The translations under genes were made by a program, and so were the position numbers. Of a stretch of DNA of 24,498 nt, positions 1-15,000 are shown in pieces. Every line of letters starts with the position of its first letter. The stretch's first letter is position 1. Below the pieces are notes generated by a model, which had not been told where the DNA came from, made no database searches, and was given only the letters and a program-made list of their open reading frames with translations. Source of the DNA: a virus (taxonomy: Duplodnaviria > Heunggongvirae > Uroviricota > Caudoviricetes); IMG/VR virus record IMGVR_UViG_2684622579_000003, one strand, 5' to 3'.

Positions 1-1053
1 TTACGGGGTAATGCCAACCGCTGCCGCCACTTTGTCGCCACTTGGCAGCGTTGCCAGAGGATTGAAACGGAGCGCCGTTTCCAGATGATCCGGTGCCAGA
101 TGTGCGTAACGCATAGTCATTTTTATATCGTGGTGTCCGAGAATTTTTTGTAAAGCCAGAATGTTTCCACCCGACATCATGAAGTGCGCCGCAAACGTAT
201 GGCGCAGAACGTGTGTGAGTTGACCGCGAGGGAGCACGATAGACGTTTTTTCCATCACGGATAAAAATTGAAAATAGCAGTCTGTGAAGAAATTGAACCC
301 ATCAAGCGCCATGATCTCTTCGTAAAGCTCTTTACTGATAGGGATGCTTCTGTTTTTCTTCCCCTTCGTTCTTACAAAGGTAATTCGGTATTTGGTCACC
401 TGTGAGCGGGTAAGATTTACGGCTTCTCGCCAGCGTGCGCCTGTGCTTAAGCATATCTTAACTACCAGTGCCAGAATTGGGTCCTGACGTTTGCAATCAG
501 CTAGTAATTCAACAATCTGCTCATGGGTAAGCCATGCCATCTCTTTTTCTGCGATGGTGAATTTTCGCATGTTCTCCAGTGGGTTCGGATACGACCATTC
601 GCCCAGGCGGGATAGTTCGCTAAAAACACTACTTAGATAGCTTTGCTCCAGGTTAATGGTGACCGGGCTTGCTCCTTTCTTCCATTTCTCACTGAAGTAG
701 ATCTCACCTGTCAGGCGTTTATCTCGATAGTGGGCAAACATTTTAGAGGTTAGATCAGTTGCAAGGGGATTGCCCAGAGCGTCAACCATCAGCAGCAATT
801 TGTCATAGACATGCTGCCCAGCAGTCAGAGATTTACCATGTAGTTTGAACCATAGCTCAACCACGTCTTTCAGTGTTCGACGATCCACTGATTCACCCAG
901 CCAGGGCTTTGCTTCGGTTTCTTCCATCGTGTGACGCTCAAAAGCCAGTGCTTCGCCTTTGGTGGCGAATTGTTTACGCACACGACGCCCACTACGTCCG
1001 GCGGGGTAACATTCGCAAAGCCATTTTCCTGTGGTGAGTTTTCGTACTGCCAT
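1..1053 (-). CDS. int: Tyrosine recombinase / phage integrase (P2/186-type), 350 aa; stop codon is the first 3 bases of the window
   Basis: Full ORF on minus strand. C-terminal catalytic region has the integrase-type signature (HVLRHTFA...H.D...TMRYAHL with the terminal Tyr). Position downstream of cI matches P2/186 layout. Confidence 0.9.
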   Translation of the reverse strand: MAVRKLTTGKWLCECYPAGRSGRRVRKQFATKGEALAFERHTMEETEAKPWLGESVDRRTLKDVVELWFKLHGKSLTAGQHVYDKLLLMVDALGNPLATDLTSKMFAHYRDKRLTGEIYFSEKWKKGASPVTINLEQSYLSSVFSELSRLGEWSYPNPLENMRKFTIAEKEMAWLTHEQIVELLADCKRQDPILALVVKICLSTGARWREAVNLTRSQVTKYRITFVRTKGKKNRSIPISKELYEEIMALDGFNFFTDCYFQFLSVMEKTSIVLPRGQLTHVLRHTFAAHFMMSGGNILALQKILGHHDIKMTMRYAHLAPDHLETALRFNPLATLPSGDKVAAAVGITP

Positions 1054-3656: not shown

Positions 3657-4232
3657 TTACTCAAAGTACTTAACTGTTATGCTTATAATTTTTCCAATAA
3701 TTTCGATTTCTTCTTTTTTACATTCGAAAGCCCTATTTCCACCTTCAACTAAGATTCTTCCACCAGGTAAACGAGTGATATCGCGGATTGTTACTTCGGC
3801 ATCAATACTTATTACCCATTTGCCGTCACGAATATCGTTAAACTCTTTATCGCAAATAAAAACGGAATTGTTATCGGTGATTACAAACGGATTTTTGAGC
3901 GTAGATGGTAGAAATTCTTTATCGAAAATATAAAAACCATCTTCCTGCAAGGTTCCATCAGATAATACATATTTAACGACTTCCATAGTATTTGTATTAC
4001 CTGAAGTTTGCTTTGAACCATGTCCGGTCGTGAGCCAGTTAAGCGAGGCGCCCGTTTCAAGTGCGCACTGGATTACCCATTCAGCAGGGAATGAGTCACG
4101 CATATAGCGTGTGGCGAGAGTACTTTTAGAGATTCCTAAGTGATCGCACAACGCCTGTCGAGTCTTGAAGCCATATGCTTCTACCATGCGCTCTATAGCG
4201 CCTCGTCCGCCTTTCTCCAAATTCATGGTCAC
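3657..4232 (-). CDS. cI: Immunity repressor CI, phage-186 type (191 aa)
   Basis: Length and sequence recall 186 CI (N-terminal HTH ..EAYGF...LA.HL.IS.S.L..RY.R......CALETGA.L.WL.TG). Located immediately upstream of int and divergent from apl/cII. GGAG-like RBS upstream of the ATG. Confidence 0.85.
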   Translation of the reverse strand: MTMNLEKGGRGAIERMVEAYGFKTRQALCDHLGISKSTLATRYMRDSFPAEWVIQCALETGASLNWLTTGHGSKQTSGNTNTMEVVKYVLSDGTLQEDGFYIFDKEFLPSTLKNPFVITDNNSVFICDKEFNDIRDGKWVISIDAEVTIRDITRLPGGRILVEGGNRAFECKKEEIEIIGKIISITVKYFE

Positions 4233-5929: not shown

Positions 5930-6156
5930 TGGCTGATGCAATGGATCTCGTACAGCAGCGCGTTGAAGAAGAACGCCAGCGTCATATCCGTGCTGCCCGC
6001 GCCAAAACGCCGGGCGTATCCCGCGTGCTTTGCATTGAGTGTGAAGCACCAATTCCGCCAGCACGACGTCGCGCCATTCCGGGTGTGCAGCTTTGCATTA
6101 CCTGTCAGGAAATCGCAGAGCTGAAAGGCAAACATTACAACGGAGGTGCTGTATGA
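5929..6156 (+). CDS. TraR/DksA-family C4 zinc-finger protein (75 aa)
   Basis: C-x2-C ... C-x2-C (CIECEAP...CITCQEIA) with a preceding basic helical region, as in phage TraR/DksA-like proteins. Confidence 0.7.
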   Translation: MADAMDLVQQRVEEERQRHIRAARAKTPGVSRVLCIECEAPIPPARRRAIPGVQLCITCQEIAELKGKHYNGGAV

Positions 6157-7010
6157 GCACCATCCTGAAATGGGCGGGTAATAAAACCGCCATTATGCCA
6201 GAACTGAAAAAATACCTTCCTGCTGGCCCGCGACTGGTTGAACCTTTCGCGGGTTCTTGTGCTGTGATGATAGAGACGGATTACCCCAGCTATCTTGTTG
6301 CGGATATTAATCCTGATTTAATCAACCTCTATAAAAAGGTTGCTGCTGATTGCGAGGCGTTTATATCTCGTGCCAGAGCTTTATTTGAGGAAGCAAACAG
6401 GGAGGTGGCTTATTACAACATAAGGCAGGAGTTTAATTACTCCACTGAAATTACTGATTTCATGAAAGCGGTATATTTCCTGTATCTCAATCGTCATGGT
6501 TACCGTGGGTTATGTCGCTATAACAAGAGCGGGCATTTCAACATTCCCTACGGGAATTATAAAAATCCGTATTTCCCTGAAAAAGAAATTCGCAAATTTG
6601 CAGAAAAAGCCCAGCGAGCAACGTTTATCTGCGCCAGCTTTGATGAAACGCTGGCGATGTTGAAGGCGGGGGATGTGGTGTATTGCGATCCGCCTTATGA
6701 CGGTACGTTTTCCGGCTATCACACTGATGGCTTCACTGAGGATGACCAGTATCACCTGGCATCCGTTCTTGAACATCGATCATCTGAAGGTCATCCGGTC
6801 ATTGTTTCTAACAGTGACACATCCCTGATTCGTTCGCTGTATCGCAATTTCACTCACCACTACATCAAGGCAAAACGCAGCATCGGCGTGTCGGCTGGCG
6901 AGAGTAAATCTGCAACAGAAATCATTGCTGTTTCCGGGGCGCGCTGCTGGGTGGGATTTGATCCTTCGCGTGGCGTGGATAGTTCTGCTGTGTACGAGGT
7001 GCGTGTATGA
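6153..7010 (+). CDS. dam: DNA adenine (N6) methyltransferase, Dam-like orphan MTase
   Basis: Motif I (EPFAGSCAV) near the N-terminus and catalytic motif IV DPPY (VYCDPPYDG); N-terminal KWAGNK typical of Dam. Start placed at the ATG at 6153; the track ORF begins further upstream at 6093. Confidence 0.85.
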
Positions 7011-9421
7011 GTCATGATGATATGAGCAACTCTAGCGGCTTTAACGAGGCCGCTGCAGCATTTTCATGGAACGGCCCGAAAAAGGCCATTAACCCTTATC
7101 TGGACCCGGCGGAAGTTGCGCCGGAGTCTGCACTTTCAAACATGATCACTCTGTACGCTGCCGATAACGAGCAGGAACAGCTGCGCCGCGATGCACTGAG
7201 TGAGCAGGTCTGGGAGCGTTATTTCTTTAATGAATCCCGTGATCCTGTCCAGCGCGAAATGGAGCAGGATAATCTCATTAGTCGGGCAAAGCTGGCGCAT
7301 GAGCAGCAGCGTTTTAACCCGGACATGGTCATTCTGGCGGACGTCAGCGCCCAGCCCACCCACATCAGCAAGCCGCTGATGCAACGTATCGAATACTTCA
7401 GCAGCCTGGGCAGGCCAAAGGCTTATTCCCGCTATTTGCGTGAGACGATTAAGTCATGTCTGGAGCGACTGGAGTATGTACGCGACAGTCAGCTATCCGC
7501 TTCTTTCCGTTTTATGGCAAGCCATCAAGGGCTTGAGGGCCTGCTGATCCTGCCTGAAATGAGTCAGGATCAGGTAAAACGCCTGTCCACCTTGGTAGCA
7601 GCGCATATGAGCATGTGTCTTGAGGCCGCTTGTGGTGATTTGTATGCCTCCGATGACGTTAAGCCAGAAGAAATCCGCAAGACATGGGAAAAGGTGGCAG
7701 CGGAAACCCTGCGTCTGGATGTTATCCCGCCTGCGTTTGAGAAACTCCGTCGGAAAAGAAACCGCCGCAAACCCGTGCCCTATGAACTCATACCGGGTTC
7801 GCTGGCACGTATGCTTTGCGCCGACTGGTGGTATCGAAAATTGTGGAAGATACGTTGCGAATGGCGGGAAGAGCAGTTGCGTGCTGTCTGCCTGGTCAGC
7901 AAAAAAGCATCTCCCTATGTCAGCTATGAAGCAGTGACGCATAAACGTGAGCAGCGCCGCAAGTCGCTGGAGTTTTTCCGTTCTCATGAACTGGTGAACG
8001 AAGACGGCGACACGCTGGATATGGAAGACGTGGTAAACGCCAGCAGCAGCAACCCGGCGCACCGCCGCAATGAGATGATGGCCTGTGTTAAAGGTCTGGA
8101 GCTTATCGCGGAAATGCGTGGTGACTGCGCCGTTTTCTACACCATTACCTGTCCGTCACGTTTCCATTCTACGCTCAATAACGGCAGACCAAACCCAACC
8201 TGGACAAATGCGACGGTAAGACAAAGCAGCGATTATCTGGTCGGCATGTTTGCTGCATTTCGTAAGGCTATGCACAAAGCCGGGTTGCGCTGGTATGGCG
8301 TGCGGGTGGCTGAGCCGCACCATGACGGTACTGTGCACTGGCATCTCATGTGTTTCATGCGCAAAAAAGACCGCCGCGCCATTACTGCATTGTTGCGTAA
8401 GTTTGCCATCCGTGAAGACCGCGAGGAACTGGGCAATAACACGGGTCCACGCTTTAAGTCTGAGCTGATAAACCCGCGCAAAGGAACGCCGACAAGCTAC
8501 ATCGCGAAATACATCAGTAAGAACATTGACGGACGTGGTCTGGCTGGCGAGATCAGCAAGGAAACGGGTAAATCCCTGCGTGATAACGCCGAATACGTTA
8601 ATGCCTGGGCGTCTCTGCATCGTGTTCAGCAGTTCCGCTTCTTTGGTATTCCGGGGCGTCAGGCGTACCGTGAACTTCGCTTGCTGGCTGGTCAGGCGGC
8701 AAGGCAACAGGGTGACAAAAAAGCAGGTGCGCCGGTACTGGATGACCCGCGCCTTGATGCCATCCTGGCTGCCGCTGATGCTGGCTGTTTTGCCACCTAC
8801 ATCATGAAGCAGGGCGGCGTACTGGTTCCCCGCAAATATCACCTTATCAGAACAGCTTATGAAATTAACGAAGAGCCGACCGCTTATGGCGATCACGGTA
8901 TTCGTATTTATGGCATCTGGTCACCCATTGTACAGGGCAAGATCTGCACTCATGCAATGAAATGGAAAATGGTTCGTAAGGTCGTTGACGTTCAGGAGGC
9001 GGCAGCCGACCAGGGCGCTTGCGCCCCTTGGACTCGTGGCAATAACTGTCCCCTTGCTGAAAATTTGTACCAACAAGGGAAAGACAAATCAGCTGATGGG
9101 GATACCAGAACGGATATCACCCGTATGGATGACAAGGAGTTGCACGATTACCTGCACAGTATGAACAAAAAAGAACGCCGGGAACTGGCTGCAAGGTTAC
9201 GCCTGGTGAAACCGAAACGGCGTAGAGACTACAAACAGCGAATTACAGACCATCAACGACAGCAGCTCGTCTATGAACTGAAGTCCAGAGGATTTGATGG
9301 CAGCGAGAAAGAGGTCGATTTACTCCTTCGCGGCGGCAGCATTCCGTCAGGAGCAGGCCTGCGTATTTTCTATCGGAACCAGCGTTTGCAGGAAGATGAT
9401 AAGTGGCGGAACCTGTATTAA
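7007..9421 (+). CDS. A: Replication initiation protein A (rolling-circle HUH endonuclease), 804 aa
   Basis: HUH motif ([10 protein letters not shown]) and paired-tyrosine motif ([10 protein letters not shown]). Size and position match P2/186 gene A. Start overlaps the dam stop (ATGA). Confidence 0.9.
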
Positions 9422-9513
9422 TTACGCGGATTAACAATTCGTGCTCTTAATAATACCAGGCATATCAGGCTGATGAACGTAAAAAAACGTTTTACATCAG
9501 TAAGATTATTATA

Positions 9514-9533
9514 TACTGTAAATATAAACAGTG
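9514..9533 (+). promoter_or_regulatory. LexA (SOS) box TACTGTAAATATAAACAGTG overlapping a promoter-like region
   Basis: Perfect CTGT-N8-ACAG with AT-rich spacer, read directly from sequence. Upstream TTTACA (9491-9496) and TATACT (9512-9517) resemble -35/-10 elements. About 40 bp upstream of a small ORF with a strong RBS. Confidence 0.7.
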
Positions 9534-9574
9534 GTTATACATACAGTATTGCTTGTGGTGTCATAGGAGGAAAG

Positions 9575-9763
9575 ATGCAGGACTATTTTTTGGAGTCTTT
9601 GAAGCTCCAACGCATTGATTTTTTTCTTAAGCTTGTAGCGGCTAGTGAGTGTAGTGATGAAGAGAAGGGGCTGGCCCTGCAGTGGGTTTCTGAACTGACA
9701 GATGAACTCATGGCAAAAATCAGAAGCCACGAATACAACCGCTCAATGGATGTCATCAGCTGA
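9575..9763 (+). CDS. Small hypothetical protein (62 aa from the ATG at 9575), first gene of the putative SOS-controlled operon
   Basis: AGGAGG RBS at 9564-9569, then ATG at 9575, within track ORF 9473..9763. Lies downstream of the LexA box. Confidence 0.55.
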   Translation: MQDYFLESLKLQRIDFFLKLVAASECSDEEKGLALQWVSELTDELMAKIRSHEYNRSMDVIS

Positions 9764-9773
9764 GGGGACTTTT

Positions 9774-10007
9774 ATGCGCATTGAAATAATGATCGATAAA
9801 GAGCAGAAGATTAGCCAGTCTACCCTGGACGCCCTTGAATCAGAGCTTTACCGCAATCTGCGCCCCCTGTATCCCAAAACGGTAATTCGTATCCGTAAAG
9901 GTAGCTCTAACGGTGTGGAACTGACCGGACTGCAACTGGACGAAGAAAGGAAACAAGTGATGAAAATTATGCAGAAGGTGTGGGAAGACGACAGCTGGCT
10001 GCATTAA
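9774..10007 (+). CDS. dinI: DinI-family protein (77 aa)
   Basis: MRIEI.I.K ... L..EL.R ... KIMQKVWEDDSWL closely resembles E. coli DinI (MRIEVTIAK ... ETWES.DDWF). Start at the ATG at 9774 within track ORF 9702..10007. Confidence 0.75.
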   Translation: MRIEIMIDKEQKISQSTLDALESELYRNLRPLYPKTVIRIRKGSSNGVELTGLQLDEERKQVMKIMQKVWEDDSWLH

Positions 10008-10391
10008 GAAACGTTGCTGGCGTCTGAACTTGCTTCTGGCGTCAGCAAGGTTGAACAACGAGCTATGCGAGGCGTTAGCCATCTGATCAAAAGACATCAA
10101 ATATCATATTGTATATCGTGGTCAAACGCTGGAAACAATCATTCCCGATCAGAGGGGCTTCTTTCAATGTCCAAAAGAGTGAGATAGAGGATACAGGATG
10201 GGAAGAGCTTTTGATTAATTATCGTCCAAGTTTTTCAAAAGCTTCTTATCTGGCGGTCGATACATGATTTACTGTTGGATATGGTATTTAAAATTAATCT
10301 TTACACTGTGGTATATGCAGAATAGGATATTATCAATACAATCAAACTGTTTTCATACGGTTATTAATATTGCAATGTTATAGGTAATGTC

Positions 10392-11510
10392 ATGTATCTT
10401 TTCAAGTATTACCGTCCGGACTTCTTCTTCGAGAAAGCTATTCGTTATAATGAATTATATTTTTCCGCTCCTGCGCAATTGAATGATCCCAATGATCTCA
10501 ATATAGATTATCGCTTCGATAATAAATTGAAATTATGGGATATTTTATTGCGTTCTCCTTGCGATAAATCCTATAAAAATTTGAGTCACATATTGGATTT
10601 GAGTAATTTGAAAATACATAAGGGATTGAATCGTATTTTTAGAGGAAAAAAAATAAAAAGTAGCATTGAGTCATTAGATAGCCTGTTTGACTCACACGTT
10701 GATGAGATACGTAAGATCATAGATGATGGTTTACTACCTATCAATGTGATTAATTCTGCTATTTATGGAAATATTCCTGAACCACGCCAATATTTAGTTT
10801 CACTTTGCGAGAACAGTATCAAAGAAAGGTTGTATAGGAAAATAGTTCCTGCAGTATTCAGTGTGTCATTTTCAGCTAATGCGTTAGATCGTATGATGTG
10901 GGCGCATTATGCTGCTGGCTTTAGTGGTTGTGTTGTGATTTATGAAACGCAGGATTTTAATATTGATGGTATATCCTATACTGGAATGAAGCTAAGAGAA
11001 AATTTATTTTCATCAGATAAATTTAATTTTCCAGTTAAGCCAATAAAATATAGTAATCAGGCTAAAGAGGTTTCACTTCTAGACCCAAGCGCAAATGTTG
11101 CAGAGTTATTTTTAACTAAAAATAGATTTTGGAGATATGAAGCTGAATATCGAATGTTTATTCCGGAGGCAAATGCAGGAATAGGGAGTGAGCGGCATGT
11201 TCAAAGACGCGTAAATCGAAATATTGGACATATTTTTCATCATGATGCTAATGTTGTTAAAGGGATCATTTTTGGTCCTAGAATGTGTGAAATGAAAAAA
11301 GAAAGCATATGGAATTGTATCAAGTCAAATATGGAGAATTCAAATTCAACAATATGTTATTTTTTTGACTCTGAGTTATCAGCATCAGGAAAGATTACTA
11401 TTTCAAAAGGGCAACGAGCGGAAAAAATGAAAAATTTCACTTTGTTCAGGAACAAGTTAAGTCAGACGGAAATGGCTAAAGTTTTGAAGGAAATTGGCAT
11501 TACGAACTAA
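10392..11510 (+). CDS. DUF2971-like protein (372 aa), AT-rich cargo gene at the tin/old-equivalent locus
   Basis: N-terminal signature LFKYYRP....... ELYFSAPAQLNDPNDL matches the DUF2971 hallmark as I recall it. Very low GC; sits between replication gene A and cos, where P2 carries tin and old. Confidence 0.6.
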   Translation: MYLFKYYRPDFFFEKAIRYNELYFSAPAQLNDPNDLNIDYRFDNKLKLWDILLRSPCDKSYKNLSHILDLSNLKIHKGLNRIFRGKKIKSSIESLDSLFDSHVDEIRKIIDDGLLPINVINSAIYGNIPEPRQYLVSLCENSIKERLYRKIVPAVFSVSFSANALDRMMWAHYAAGFSGCVVIYETQDFNIDGISYTGMKLRENLFSSDKFNFPVKPIKYSNQAKEVSLLDPSANVAELFLTKNRFWRYEAEYRMFIPEANAGIGSERHVQRRVNRNIGHIFHHDANVVKGIIFGPRMCEMKKESIWNCIKSNMENSNSTICYFFDSELSASGKITISKGQRAEKMKNFTLFRNKLSQTEMAKVLKEIGITN

Positions 11511-11576
11511 CCTAACAACAGTGCATGCCTATGCTGCCTGAATTTGCATGACCGTTTGAGGATCGTTTTTGCTAAG

Positions 11577-11604
11577 GCCCGCCAGAACTGGCGGGCTTTT
11601 GCGT
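11577..11604 (+). terminator. Rho-independent terminator (GCCCGCCAG-AA-CTGGCGGGC followed by TTTTG)
   Basis: 9-bp GC-rich perfect stem with U-tract, read directly; about 65 bp after the DUF2971 stop. Confidence 0.7.
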
Positions 11605-11645
11605 GGATCAGGCACCTGCATGAAAACCACTACACAAAGCGGGCA

Positions 11646-11664
11646 GGCGTGGCGGGGATACGAG
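11646..11664. other. cos: Probable cos site (cohesive-end region) of P2/186 type
   Basis: GGCGTGGCGGGGATACGAG resembles the 19-nt cohesive ends of 186/P2 (recalled as GGCG(T/A)GGCGGGGAAAGCA.). Correct position between the accessory locus and portal gene Q. Confidence 0.55.
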
Positions 11665-11869
11665 CGCGCACTCTGGGGTAAAATGGTCAAAATCCACCGC
11701 AATTTACTGGCTCGGGAACGTAGTTAGTTTTGTAGGTATAAACGGCTCTCACGTTAGATAGGCATGCAGGATGTGTTAAATCGTTGTGATGAAGTTAACG
11801 GTGACTGAGACAGTTTAGGTCTAAGATATAACTTCTGGGTTAGTTAAAAATTGGAATAGTAAGACATTT

Positions 11870-12166
11870 ATGAAAACTACTTATAGCTATGATTTTCAAT
11901 ATATGCGCAAAGGTCAGGATCGCCCTGATGATGATGGAGAGGTTGTAGGGTGTAATTCAGAAGACAACTCGCTTTTGATGCTTCCAAATGTGGGAGACTA
12001 CGTAACAATTACGAATAAGGGTGGGCGTGCTCAATTTGATGGGCGGGTGAAAACAAGGCTTTTCAATTACCTACGCATTGCTGATGGTCATGTTCATTGC
12101 TCCATTTGCATTGTAGTTGAGGAAGTTGATATGGACTCCGTATGGGGGGCACTAATTAAAGAATAA
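11870..12166 (+). CDS. Hypothetical protein (98 aa), AT-rich moron between cos and Q
   Basis: ORF with low GC, followed immediately by a hairpin terminator. No recognisable motif; two Cys pairs (C28, C77/C80). Confidence 0.5.
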   Translation: MKTTYSYDFQYMRKGQDRPDDDGEVVGCNSEDNSLLMLPNVGDYVTITNKGGRAQFDGRVKTRLFNYLRIADGHVHCSICIVVEEVDMDSVWGALIKE

Positions 12167-12172
12167 TAGAAT

Positions 12173-12188
12173 GCCTGCAAATGCAGGC
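12173..12188. terminator. Bidirectional hairpin terminator (GCCTGCA-AA-TGCAGGC) between the 98-aa ORF and Q
   Basis: 7-bp inverted repeat flanked by A/T-rich runs on both sides, lying between the convergent stops of ORF 11870..12166 (+) and Q (-). Confidence 0.6.
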
Positions 12189-12196
12189 GCTTTAAT

Positions 12197-13237
12197 TTAC
12201 TCAGAAATATCTAAGTTGTAAGATTCAAAGCAAATCACTTTTTCACCTAGCCAGTTGTTCAGCTCTTGCAGCCGCTTTTGCAGTGGCATCAGTTCATTGC
12301 GGACAAACACTCGACTAGCCTTCTCCACATCCCCAAACCCCCCGACATTATTAGGCATTATCCCCATCATTTGTGGCGGCACACGATGCGCCGCCATCAT
12401 GTCGTCCCGGCTCACGTTCTTGATATTCAGGAACTCATCCTTCGCCGCCACTTCTGACAACGGGATAATCTGAAGCCCGTCCTTTTTACCGTTAGGCGAG
12501 TACATAAACAGGTTACGGAAGTTACCAGGACCTTTGGCGCTTTTCATCGCATTGCGGAGGTTGTTCACATCCTCCTGGTTCTGCGCAGCATCGGTCATGT
12601 ACATGATGAAGCCTGCATGACTGCCGTTAATGTAATACTTGCGGCGGAACAGCGTGGCGGACTCGTTGAGCAGAGCTGACGGAATGGCAGAAAGATAACC
12701 GGGCAGGCCGTAGATCTCCTGGTTAATGTCCGGTTCCATCAGATGAAAAATGCTGCCTTTCGTGAACTGATACGGCTGGGTTGTCATACCGTATTGCACA
12801 AACCAGTAGGTATCCAGGTCTAACCCGCGTCGGGTGTATTTTGCCAGTGCAGGCTCAAGGGCGATAACTTCACCGAAGCGGTTCGTGCGTTTCTCCAGGT
12901 AGGCGTTACCAAAAACCAGATAGTCCTGCACAAAACGCGAAAAAGCCTGCTGGCTGAGCAGCGGGTGAGGGATGTAGGTGCTGGTCAGAATGTTGCACTT
13001 CACTGCAATCGGTGAGCTGTGATGCACGGCGGCGCGGAAGGTTCGCGCCAGTCCGTCGAAACTCACAGGCGGCTCATACCAACGATCCATCTGTACGCAT
13101 TCCACATAGTCCAGCAGTTCGCGGCGGTCCAGAACAGGAACGGGATCACCGAAGCTGAATGCTTCGGCTGAAGTCTGGCTTTTATGCTGGATCTGTTTCG
13201 TCGACGCAGCGCGGTTCTTCTTACTCTTTCCCATCAA
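12197..13237 (-). CDS. Q: Portal vertex protein (P2 gpQ-like), 346 aa
   Basis: Size, position adjacent to cos, orientation opposite to the O-N-M operon, and ATGA coupling to the terminase gene match P2 Q. Confidence 0.85.
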   Translation of the reverse strand: MMGKSKKNRAASTKQIQHKSQTSAEAFSFGDPVPVLDRRELLDYVECVQMDRWYEPPVSFDGLARTFRAAVHHSSPIAVKCNILTSTYIPHPLLSQQAFSRFVQDYLVFGNAYLEKRTNRFGEVIALEPALAKYTRRGLDLDTYWFVQYGMTTQPYQFTKGSIFHLMEPDINQEIYGLPGYLSAIPSALLNESATLFRRKYYINGSHAGFIMYMTDAAQNQEDVNNLRNAMKSAKGPGNFRNLFMYSPNGKKDGLQIIPLSEVAAKDEFLNIKNVSRDDMMAAHRVPPQMMGIMPNNVGGFGDVEKASRVFVRNELMPLQKRLQELNNWLGEKVICFESYNLDISE

Positions 13238-15000
13238 AAAATCTCCACAATATTGCTGGTATTGGCGGACTCGCCCTGCAGCGGTTCGTTAAACAGTGCG
13301 TGCATTGTTGCCCAGGCCAGATCGGCATGGCTGGCTTCTTCGCTGCGGCTGGCTTCATAGGTCGGGCGGTTGCCACTGGCAGTGGTAGCGCGACGGATTG
13401 CCATAAATGACTGCGCAATGTCGGTGTGCCCGGCGTCAAACTCCAGACGGCGGTGGCTGATAATGTCGTAGGCCTTGAGTACCAGGGCGTTTTTAACGTT
13501 GGGGTTGTAGACAAACTCCCTGACGGCAGGAAAAAACGCTTTCACGTTCTCGTAAACCCCGTGACCGACGCCGGTCGAGTCGATGCCGATATAGGTCACG
13601 TTGTACTGTTCGGTCAGTTTTTTGATGGCGTCAGCCTGGGCGCGGAAGTCCATCCCGCGCCACTGGTGACGCTCAAGAATGCGGAACTTACCACCCGGCA
13701 CGGCTGGCGGAGCCACCACCACGCATCCGGCACTATCGCCGTTCTGCGTACCTTTTGCCGGGTCATAACCGATCCACACCTCGCGCCAGCCAAACGGGCG
13801 CAGCGCCAGTGCATGAAAGTCGGTCCAGACTTCCCAGCTGTCCACCATGCACGCCTGCAGCTCGCTGAGCGGAAACACGGACGCGAGATCGTCCACAAAC
13901 TCGCACATCAGCAGGTTCTGGTATTCGTCCGGGCTGTACTCCATGCGCAACTGGTCAAGGTCGAACAGGTTACAGCCGCCGCGCACCGCATCTTCCACGG
14001 TGACTATCTGGCGGTATTGCCCGTCTGCGCACAGCAGGCCGGGGGCCAGATTGCTGTGGGACAGGTCGATGTCCACCTTATCGGCTTTGTTGCGCCCACG
14101 GTTGAACAGCGCACCGGACCAGAACGGATAAGCACTGTGTGTCAGGCTGGATGGCGTGGAAAAATAGGTTTGTCGCCATTTCTTGTGAATAGCCATACCG
14201 GAAGCCACTTTGCGCAGCTCCTGAAATTTCGGTATCCAGAAATATTCATCCAGATACAGGTTGCCGTGGTAACTCTGGGCCGTGCGGGCATTGGTGCCGA
14301 GGAAGTAAAGCGTGGCTCCGTTAGGAAGCACCATCGGATCGCCTTTTAGCTCCACCTCGACTTCTTTGGCGAAGTCGATGATGTATTGTTTAAAGACGTG
14401 GGCCTGAGCCTTACTGGCAGAAAGGAAAATCTGGTTACGTCCGGTAAGCAGGGCGTCAATCAGGGCTTCACGGGCAAAATAGAAGGTTGCGCCGATCTGG
14501 CGAGACTTCAGCAGGTTGCGGATGCGGTTGGTTTTTCCGGCTTCCCACCAGTGGCGCTGGTAGTTGAACATGGAGGAATGGAAGATTTCTTCCAGCTTCT
14601 CAATCTGCTCATCGGTGAAAACATTCTTTTCCGGCTGACGGCGTGGGCCTTTGTTGCGGTTGGCGACGTTAGGGTTTAAGTCGGCTTCGTTACCGCCATT
14701 GTTAAACTTGCCGATCCGCGCGTGGCGCTCCGACTGGCGCGCCAGCAGGTCAATTTCTTTGAAATCTTTCCCTTCTTTGTGCTCCTTCATAATGAGCTGG
14801 CAGTAGCGTGCGGCGGTGGTGAGCTGCATCTGATCCAGCGGCCCATAGTCACCCCACTTGTCGCGTTTCTTCCAGCTGTGAACGGTTGCAACTTTCTCGC
14901 CCAGCATTTCAGCAATGCGGGCTACACGGTATCCCTGAAAGTACAGCAGCATGGCCTGCCGACGGGGATCGAGATCTGCGGGTGTCAGTGTGGTGTTCAT
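13234..15000 (-). CDS. P: Terminase large (ATPase) subunit (P2 gpP-like), 588 aa
   Basis: 588-aa ORF upstream of the portal on the same strand, divergent from the scaffold/capsid operon, as in P2. Confidence 0.85.
   Translation of the reverse strand: MNTTLTPADLDPRRQAMLLYFQGYRVARIAEMLGEKVATVHSWKKRDKWGDYGPLDQMQLTTAARYCQLIMKEHKEGKDFKEIDLLARQSERHARIGKFNNGGNEADLNPNVANRNKGPRRQPEKNVFTDEQIEKLEEIFHSSMFNYQRHWWEAGKTNRIRNLLKSRQIGATFYFAREALIDALLTGRNQIFLSASKAQAHVFKQYIIDFAKEVEVELKGDPMVLPNGATLYFLGTNARTAQSYHGNLYLDEYFWIPKFQELRKVASGMAIHKKWRQTYFSTPSSLTHSAYPFWSGALFNRGRNKADKVDIDLSHSNLAPGLLCADGQYRQIVTVEDAVRGGCNLFDLDQLRMEYSPDEYQNLLMCEFVDDLASVFPLSELQACMVDSWEVWTDFHALALRPFGWREVWIGYDPAKGTQNGDSAGCVVVAPPAVPGGKFRILERHQWRGMDFRAQADAIKKLTEQYNVTYIGIDSTGVGHGVYENVKAFFPAVREFVYNPNVKNALVLKAYDIISHRRLEFDAGHTDIAQSFMAIRRATTASGNRPTYEASRSEEASHADLAWATMHALFNEPLQGESANTSNIVEIF

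Follow-up and report, generated by a model that had tools for sequence, protein, structure and literature searches.

A DUF2971 gene in the tin/old-equivalent slot of a P2-like Escherichia coli prophage, a candidate single-gene ADP-ribosyltransferase-type defence

DarT, the toxin of the DarTG system, is an ADP-ribosyltransferase (ART) that acts on thymidine in single-stranded DNA and is accompanied by the DarG macrodomain antitoxin. CmdTAC consists of an ART toxin, an antitoxin and a SecB-like chaperone (Vassallo 2022, PMC9519451). Aristaios, from the Lactococcus plasmid pUCCL641_199, is a 316-amino-acid (aa) single-gene DUF2971 protein with an experimentally validated, abortive-infection-like action (Grafakou et al. 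2024, PMC11381338); it blocks phage transcription and protein production and has a predicted ART fold (PMC11381338, PMC13064643, PMC12967558). No escape mutants of Aristaios were obtained, and by 2026 neither PADLOC nor DefenseFinder listed a system so named; it is the source of the only functional data in the DUF2971 superfamily. In P2-like prophages, the interval between gene A and the portal gene has been documented as a hotspot for defence genes (Rousset 2022, PMC9122126; Vassallo 2022, PMC9519451). Here we describe a gene for a 372-aa DUF2971 protein in this interval of IMG/VR record IMGVR_UViG_2684622579_000003, a stretch of 24,498 nucleotides (the window) that is part of a P2-like (Peduoviridae-type) prophage of Escherichia coli.

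Like Aristaios, the window cargo is a single gene whose DUF2971 product is predicted to have an ART fold, whereas Aristaios is shorter and comes from a Gram-positive plasmid, and the window protein belongs to a gammaproteobacterial subfamily with a helical insertion and a C-terminal extension. A tblastn search of PLSDB gave no Lactococcus match, and the one 316-aa candidate for Aristaios (P0189) is an unnamed record. In contrast to DarTG, the cargo contains neither a DarG macrodomain nor a second intact gene, and no macrodomain was found among the neighbours; the protein has no DarT match in Pfam or PADLOC, carries K/R rather than H in motif I, and has large insertions. With only 8-13% identity to DarT in addition, it is therefore not a member of DarTG. 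CmdTAC is likewise an E. coli prophage-associated defence with an ART-like toxin effector, but it comprises three genes, whereas the window cargo lacks both antitoxin and chaperone and gave no PADLOC match to the CmdTAC models. The P2 genes tin and old occupy the same slot between gene A and cos as non-essential lysogenic-conversion cargo; no homology to them was found in the Pfam and PADLOC searches, which returned DUF2971 and PDC-S31 only, and Old is an AAA/Toprim nuclease.

We propose that the gene provides an NAD+-dependent, ADP-ribosylating defence of the abortive-infection type for the lysogen, a reading to which we assign a probability of about one half. It draws on the gene and its boundaries, a promoter that travels with it, its family, a predicted ART-like fold, invariant residues of catalytic type, purifying selection and recurrent contexts. 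An anti-phage role had been the leading hypothesis of an earlier interpretation made from the letters only (the sequence-only reading), and it is strengthened by the match to the PADLOC family PDC-S31, by Aristaios (PMC11381338) and by the mobile-element and defence contexts of relatives. The novelty that this interpretation implied is lower: the family is already a PADLOC candidate, one of its distant members has been validated and its ART nature has been predicted in print, and DUF2971 genes are listed among P2 hotspot loci, with at least 18 mentions in the accessible part of Table S5 of Rousset 2022 (PMC9122126).

As the sequence-only reading had described, the gene is a single AT-rich open reading frame (ORF), with a guanine-plus-cytosine (GC) content of 0.33 compared to 0.51-0.55 in the flanks. 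A near-identical gene is named 'DUF2971 domain-containing protein' in RefSeq, and the identical protein is deposited at NCBI as 'DUF2971 domain-containing protein [Escherichia coli]'. The 90%-identity cluster of the protein has 273 members from E. coli and K. pneumoniae, and the full 1.6-kb locus was present at 98-99.9% identity in 27 of 5426 complete E. coli genomes. About 67 homologous clusters, together with a ratio of nonsynonymous to synonymous substitution rates (dN/dS) of 0.09-0.19 between alleles, mark the ORF as a genuine gene rather than a product of chance; it has been under purifying selection while the adjacent small gene decayed.

Membership of DUF2971, previously proposed from an N-terminal signature, was supported by a marginal profile match to PF11185 (22.9 bits, with the cut-off at 22; E = 2.3e-4), in which the full profile (1-89) aligned with residues 169-255. 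The same profile matched 43 of 43 relatives, with a best E value of 1.1e-8. The N-terminal signature itself (ELYFS...NDPxD) is invariant in generic DUF2971 proteins, though it lies outside the residues matched by Pfam, and the MWxHYA and YExExR motifs are common to the window protein and generic members. When judged without PADLOC's own coverage and E-value cut-offs, the protein matched four PDC-S31 models of PADLOC-DB v2 as a stand-alone gene and no other PADLOC family; the best model was PDLC04990 (E = 9.2e-24, profile positions 9-236 of 259, residues 3-312). These models centre on generic DUF2971 proteins of about 260 aa and fit them far better (E = 9e-59); PDC-S31 therefore corresponds to DUF2971, and the window protein is a diverged branch.

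This branch is a gammaproteobacterial subfamily of about 370 aa with a sharp boundary, its members matching at E ≤ 1e-88 before a gap to 4e-14. An exhaustive search of 1.84 billion representatives recovered 6243 proteins at E ≤ 1e-3 and just 23 at E ≤ 1e-30. Two parts set the subfamily apart from generic DUF2971 proteins: a helical insertion at residues ~46-150, about 100 aa long, and an alpha/beta extension at the C-terminus (~300-372). The window protein is basic (isoelectric point, pI, 9.2), has no transmembrane segment and is cytosolic. In PHROGs it falls in phrog_1762, of unknown function, and no NCBIfam match was found. A profile search of PDB sequences was tried as a link to a solved structure and was discarded, as it returned just a spurious peptide deformylase match.

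The statement that no enzymatic motif is evident did not hold: an ART-type signature is present. The confident AlphaFold2 model of the protein (predicted local distance difference test score, pLDDT, 93.2; predicted template modelling score, pTM, 0.86) had DarT and Tpt1 as the closest solved folds, with no sequence-level match to DarT. Across 133 aligned sequences from diverse members of the superfamily, Y173, G179, K243, E250 and E252 were invariant (133/133), and R254, W170, N31, D32 and G295 were nearly so; E21, F24, N31, D32, W170, H172, Y173, E250, E252 and R254 were each shared by 120 or more of the 133 sequences. Position 5 was R (77) or K (48), that is, 125 of 126 non-gap sequences, and S159-F160-S161 was nearly invariant as S/C-F-S/T. 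The tripartite ART signature, [H/R] - [Y or S-x-S] - [E or E-x-E], is found in the alignment, and its positions agree with the order of strands and helices in the model, where strand 155-161 bears S-x-S and precedes helix 167-173, and strand 252-258 begins with E252. The predicted positions of S-x-S and E252 would be those of canonical ART motifs II and III. An independent bioinformatic study placed DUF2971 in the ART superfamily near DarT and AbiGi; its Table 1 gives the family as an ART with ExE, a strictly conserved Tyr, a poorly conserved His and large helical inserts, and its likely substrate is given as 'protein or bacteriophage DNA' (PMC12522546). The motifs of the window protein agree with that table and with the Aristaios paper.

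The likeness to ARTs may be a distant fold relation only, in which case the protein would be a non-catalytic binder or sensor, or would perform other chemistry, and its role, in defence or elsewhere, would not involve ADP-ribosylation. This explanation can point to the Pfam searches, which at E ≤ 10 returned DUF2971 alone and no ART family for all 43 members; it has to be set against the residues that are invariant across the superfamily and the agreement with the published ART motifs. We consider it unlikely, although it survives best among the rivals to an ADP-ribosylating defence.

The location of the gene on the tin/old side, as originally claimed, was confirmed: it lies between the gpA and DinI-like genes and a cos-like site, which is followed by the portal gene Q, as in P2. 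In P2, tin and old are situated between orf91 and cosR on the minus strand, with a promoter near cos, whereas the DUF2971 gene is on the plus strand with its own promoter; it fills the tin/old-equivalent slot in the opposite orientation. When window positions 7007-15000 were used as the query against the 5426 E. coli genomes, the prophage backbone was found in 1291 and the DUF2971 cargo in just 29. Other hotspot cargos included retrons Ec67/St85, TIR, DprA plus ComF, AIPR/HEPN, PIN, KAP nucleoside triphosphatases (NTPases), DUF262, DUF4145, TIGR02391, a NotI-type restriction-modification system and an ATP-dependent old-like nuclease. The survey agrees with Rousset 2022 and Vassallo 2022 and with the description of this interval as a recognised anti-phage hotspot; DUF2971 is not mentioned in the text of Vassallo 2022 (PMC9519451).

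Nine contexts of relatives were sampled. One relative (P0004, 71% identity) occupies the same slot of another P2-like prophage, and three (P0024, P0049 and P0046, 34-40%) are in lambdoid prophages, where the neighbours are GIY-YIG, HNH, DUF7380/EMARD or DUF6602 genes; in two of the three, the relative is a lone opposite-strand gene amid early genes. The others are in a Salmonella integrative and conjugative element (ICE) among type IV secretion system genes (P0012, 62%), in an AlpA-type island with a dynamin-like GTPase (P0013, 63%), next to Thoeris ThsB/ThsA and a transposase (P0058, 34%), and in two Pseudomonas chromosomal islets with uninformative neighbours (P0033 and P0037, ~35%). Distant DUF2971 genes are common on enterobacterial plasmids. 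The failure to match DUF2971, or the placement of homologs in housekeeping contexts, that would have spoken against the sequence-only reading did not occur, given the PF11185 match and these mobile and defence contexts. In both Pseudomonas loci, the relative is followed on the same strand by a protein of about 218 aa that matched nothing in Pfam (L007, 9516-10175; L013, 7477-8130), and a small ORF (89-113 aa) comes before the relative; this may point to a partner specific to the lineage, which the enterobacterial loci lack.

A second explanation is that the ART-like protein benefits the prophage or phage itself and does not exclude other phages; it would act on proteins or nucleic acids of the host, for host takeover, counter-defence or lysogenic conversion. 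Phage T4 offers a parallel in Alt, ModA and ModB, which ADP-ribosylate host targets. The gene is phage-encoded, its product has an ART-like fold, relatives recur in several prophage types, and about 18% of DUF2971 proteins are predicted to be secreted effectors (PMC12522546). However, the gene is a sporadic accessory (29 of 1291 backbones) in a slot dominated by defence genes, its relatives also occur outside phages, in the ICE and beside Thoeris, and PADLOC derived PDC-S31 from embedding within defence systems. The gene has its own sigma-70-type promoter and belongs to no early or late phage operon, and very few anti-defence genes were reported for P2-like elements in a 2026 P2/P4 survey (PMC13586616). 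We regard a benefit to the phage as improbable, somewhat more so than a fold relation without catalysis.

The boundaries of the cargo were defined by blastn against the cargo-less P2-like phage vB_EcoM-813R9 (L002). Backbone homology reached position 10079 and resumed at 11520-11669; the insert is therefore 10080-11519 (1440 bp), and the DUF2971 ORF is its sole intact gene. The slot thus holds one functional gene, as had been stated, and the neighbouring small gene is a decayed remnant of phrog_2100. Its start codon is changed from ATG to ATC, and about 120 bp are deleted internally compared to E. coli strain p10A (L022). The gene is intact and encodes 86 aa in a related P2-like prophage (L017; phrog_2100, E = 2.9e-39), has a premature stop in another locus (L016) and is also decayed in L022. 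In phage Cartapus, an intact copy sits ahead of a different, 203-aa gene, and homologs occur in P22-like and SSU5-like phages as well. The upstream small ORF was considered as a partner or antitoxin and was rejected, as it is decayed here, in L016 and in L022 and lies beside a different gene in Cartapus; it is a small module independent of the DUF2971 gene, neither its obligate partner nor its antitoxin.

The 384 bp before the gene had been described as its own upstream region. This is true of the promoter stretch, which goes with the gene, and not of the rest, which is backbone and pseudogene remnant. Four unrelated backbones were compared (the window prophage, the P2-like prophage with the 71% allele, the Salmonella ICE and the AlpA-type island); about 100 bp before the ATG were retained with the gene in all four, while sequence farther upstream was not conserved. 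The retained stretch contains an invariant CTTTACA (-35 at 10300-10305), 17 nucleotides, a -10 element at 10323-10328 that reads TAGGAT, TAATAT or TAAAAT, and a conserved Shine-Dalgarno region. A statistical promoter scan was uninformative by itself (10 sites against 7.9 expected), and the promoter was called on conservation across the backbones instead. Based on this conservation, the gene carries its own sigma-70-type promoter, which, from its predicted elements, is as expected for a lysogen-expressed gene. A second conserved TTTAC motif is present in all four backbones at 10265-10275, about 30 bp upstream of the -35 CTTTACA (10299-10305), and could be a regulator-binding site. The region upstream of the gene had no Rfam match, no relevant tandem repeats and no convincing inverted or antitoxin-like repeats.

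The least probable explanation, a toxin by which a selfish, toxin-antitoxin-like addiction module keeps the prophage stable, with an unrecognised antitoxin such as a small RNA or a host factor and with no dedicated anti-phage role, fits the DarT toxins as closest solved folds, the AT-rich and horizontally mobile gene and the conserved ~100-bp 5' region that goes with it, but it is opposed by the lack of a partner ORF in the 1440-bp cargo (the sole neighbour is a pseudogene here and unlinked elsewhere), of an Rfam match, tandem repeats or antitoxin-like repeats upstream and of an adjacent macrodomain gene, and it overlaps with the defence reading, as DarTG and CmdTAC themselves act in defence.

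According to the defence reading, the gene would be a self-contained accessory gene ('moron') of the P2-like prophage; its own promoter would drive it in the lysogen, and it would most likely protect that lysogen against other phages. Its product would be a cytosolic, NAD+-dependent ART of the DUF2971 branch, inactive in the uninfected cell, probably through the subfamily-specific helical insertion and/or the C-terminal domain, which are obvious candidates for autoinhibition or sensing. Upon infection, it would ADP-ribosylate DNA, RNA or a component of the transcription or translation machinery, and phage gene expression would be blocked in an abortive-infection-like manner, as with its distant relative Aristaios. 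We infer the activity as an enzyme, its substrate and trigger, the autoinhibition and also the defence phenotype from the features described above. Because the protein is basic and cytosolic and its nearest folds modify nucleic acids, DNA or RNA is mildly favoured as the substrate.

Several points weigh against this reading. The assignment of residues to ART motifs is inferred from the sequence and from the order of strands and helices in a predicted model. No antitoxin or immunity partner is visible at the locus, and a DarT-like toxin that is active and has a seemingly constitutive promoter would have to be controlled in some unexplained way. The defence role of the window protein and of the ~370-aa subfamily is a prediction; the kinship with Aristaios appears through a common Pfam family and not through direct alignment. 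PDC-S31 is a computational, 'guilt-by-embedding' candidate, for which neither a mention nor a published test was found in the literature searched, and the DUF2971 genes tabulated by Rousset 2022 are absent from its tested systems, as far as the accessible part of that source extends (PMC9122126). In addition, the chromosomal islets of the two Pseudomonas relatives show no evident mobile-element or defence genes nearby.

A more specific and rather doubtful proposal is that the ~370-aa subfamily is an antitoxin-free, single-chain 'sensor plus effector' ART, in which the insertion and the C-terminal domain would sense a phage cue and unlock the DarT/Tpt1-like core, so that nucleic acid of phage or host would be ADP-ribosylated. 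If true, its mode of control would differ from those described for DarTG, CmdTAC and Aristaios, and so might its substrate. The protein is an experimentally tractable E. coli representative and a sensible yet unsurprising test target of moderate interest. If active, it would provide the first demonstration of a DUF2971/PDC-S31-type defence both for E. coli and for a P2-like prophage. Through E. coli genetics and coliphage panels, it would then open to study a superfamily that comprises roughly 6,000 representative clusters and is found widely on plasmids and prophages. The mechanistic question is how a DarT-like ART works without an antitoxin, what triggers it, and whether DNA, RNA or protein is modified.

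Table 1. Positions of the gene, its slot and the surrounding prophage features in the window
Feature	Position	Strand	Basis or remark
Integrase	1-1053	-	Window gene order
KAP-family P-loop NTPase, 505 aa	1140-2657	-	Pfam E 1e-45; PADLOC candidate PDC-S20 E 8.2e-78
Second, longer CI-like protein, 307 aa	2683-3606	-	Two Phage_CI_repr helix-turn-helix stretches; adjoins KAP NTPase
cI-type repressor	3657-4232	-	Window gene order
Dam methylase, D12-class adenine	6093-7010	+	Pfam E 3.5e-77; directly upstream of and overlapping gene A
P2 gene A homolog (gpA, replication endonuclease), left hotspot anchor	7007-9421	+	Pfam Phage_GPA E 5.8e-128
Conserved 62-aa gene	9575-9763		phrog_698 E 2.4e-37 and RefSeq annotation of relatives
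DinI-like gene, final backbone gene ahead of variable slot	9774-10007	+	Pfam DinI E 1.3e-22; 234 nt
Backbone spacer, 72 bp	10008-10079		blastn homology to vB_EcoM-813R9
Decayed phrog_2100 small-gene remnant	10081-10218	+	Alignment with intact L017 gene and L022
Sigma-70-type promoter candidate TTTACA-N17-TAGGAT	10300-10328	+	Consensus scan and conservation across backbones
DUF2971 / PDC-S31 gene, 372 aa	10392-11510	+	ORF list; Pfam and PADLOC matches
Conserved backbone block, 150 bp	11520-11669		92% identical to cargo-less vB_EcoM-813R9 (L002)
Second variable slot, cos to Q	11670-12196	+	Homology break in relatives
Portal gene Q, right hotspot anchor	12197-13237	-	Pfam Phage_portal E 2.1e-18
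Terminase P	13234-15000	-	Window gene order

To the right of the cargo, a GC-rich hairpin was found at 11571-11602 (free energy -27.6 kcal/mol in a 56-nucleotide context, z -4.2), with just four U after it. The strong terminator of the sequence-only reading exists as a hairpin; it is not the cargo's own, because the backbone block that contains it is also present in cargo-less vB_EcoM-813R9. The hairpin may well stop the DUF2971 transcript; a place in the packaging region is equally conceivable. A cos-like 19-mer, GGCGTGGCGGGGATACGAG, at 11646-11664 was identical to the P2 cos 19-mer at 14 of 19 positions and was the best match in the window. The P2 cos junction gave no blastn alignment with the window, and cos was assigned by the 19-mer match and its position at the homology break.

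Homology with relatives stopped at 11669, 5 bp past the cos-like site, and restarted at about 12250, indicating a second variable slot between cos and Q. In the window, this slot contains a 98-aa acidic ORF (pI 4.9) at 11870-12166 on the plus strand, which matched phrog_12676 (E = 4.8e-52) and had no Pfam, PADLOC or NCBIfam match; a bidirectional hairpin follows it at 12172-12189. In related prophages, the slot is occupied by DUF262, a 306-aa gene plus HIRAN, Hypoth_Ymh/TIGR02391, AIPR or a group II intron reverse transcriptase. One DUF2971 allele was found with at least five contents of the second slot: the 98-aa ORF, DUF262, AIPR, the group II intron reverse transcriptase and a 557-aa hypothetical protein. 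The two slots assort independently, and what is called the P2 'hotspot' in fact comprises a pair of such slots, one on each side of cos.

Among the backbone genes, the 234-nucleotide DinI-like gene is annotated by RefSeq in the near-identical locus L001. The mechanically predicted 96-aa ORF at 9473-9763 is too long, as the phrog_698 match and the RefSeq annotation cover its C-terminal 62 aa only. The Dam-type methylase overlapping gene A is an arrangement also seen in many 186/P2-like prophages. The KAP NTPase, located between the integrase and the cI repressor, has weaker similarity to PifA and QatA, and the interval that contains it looks like a third cargo slot with a further candidate defence gene.

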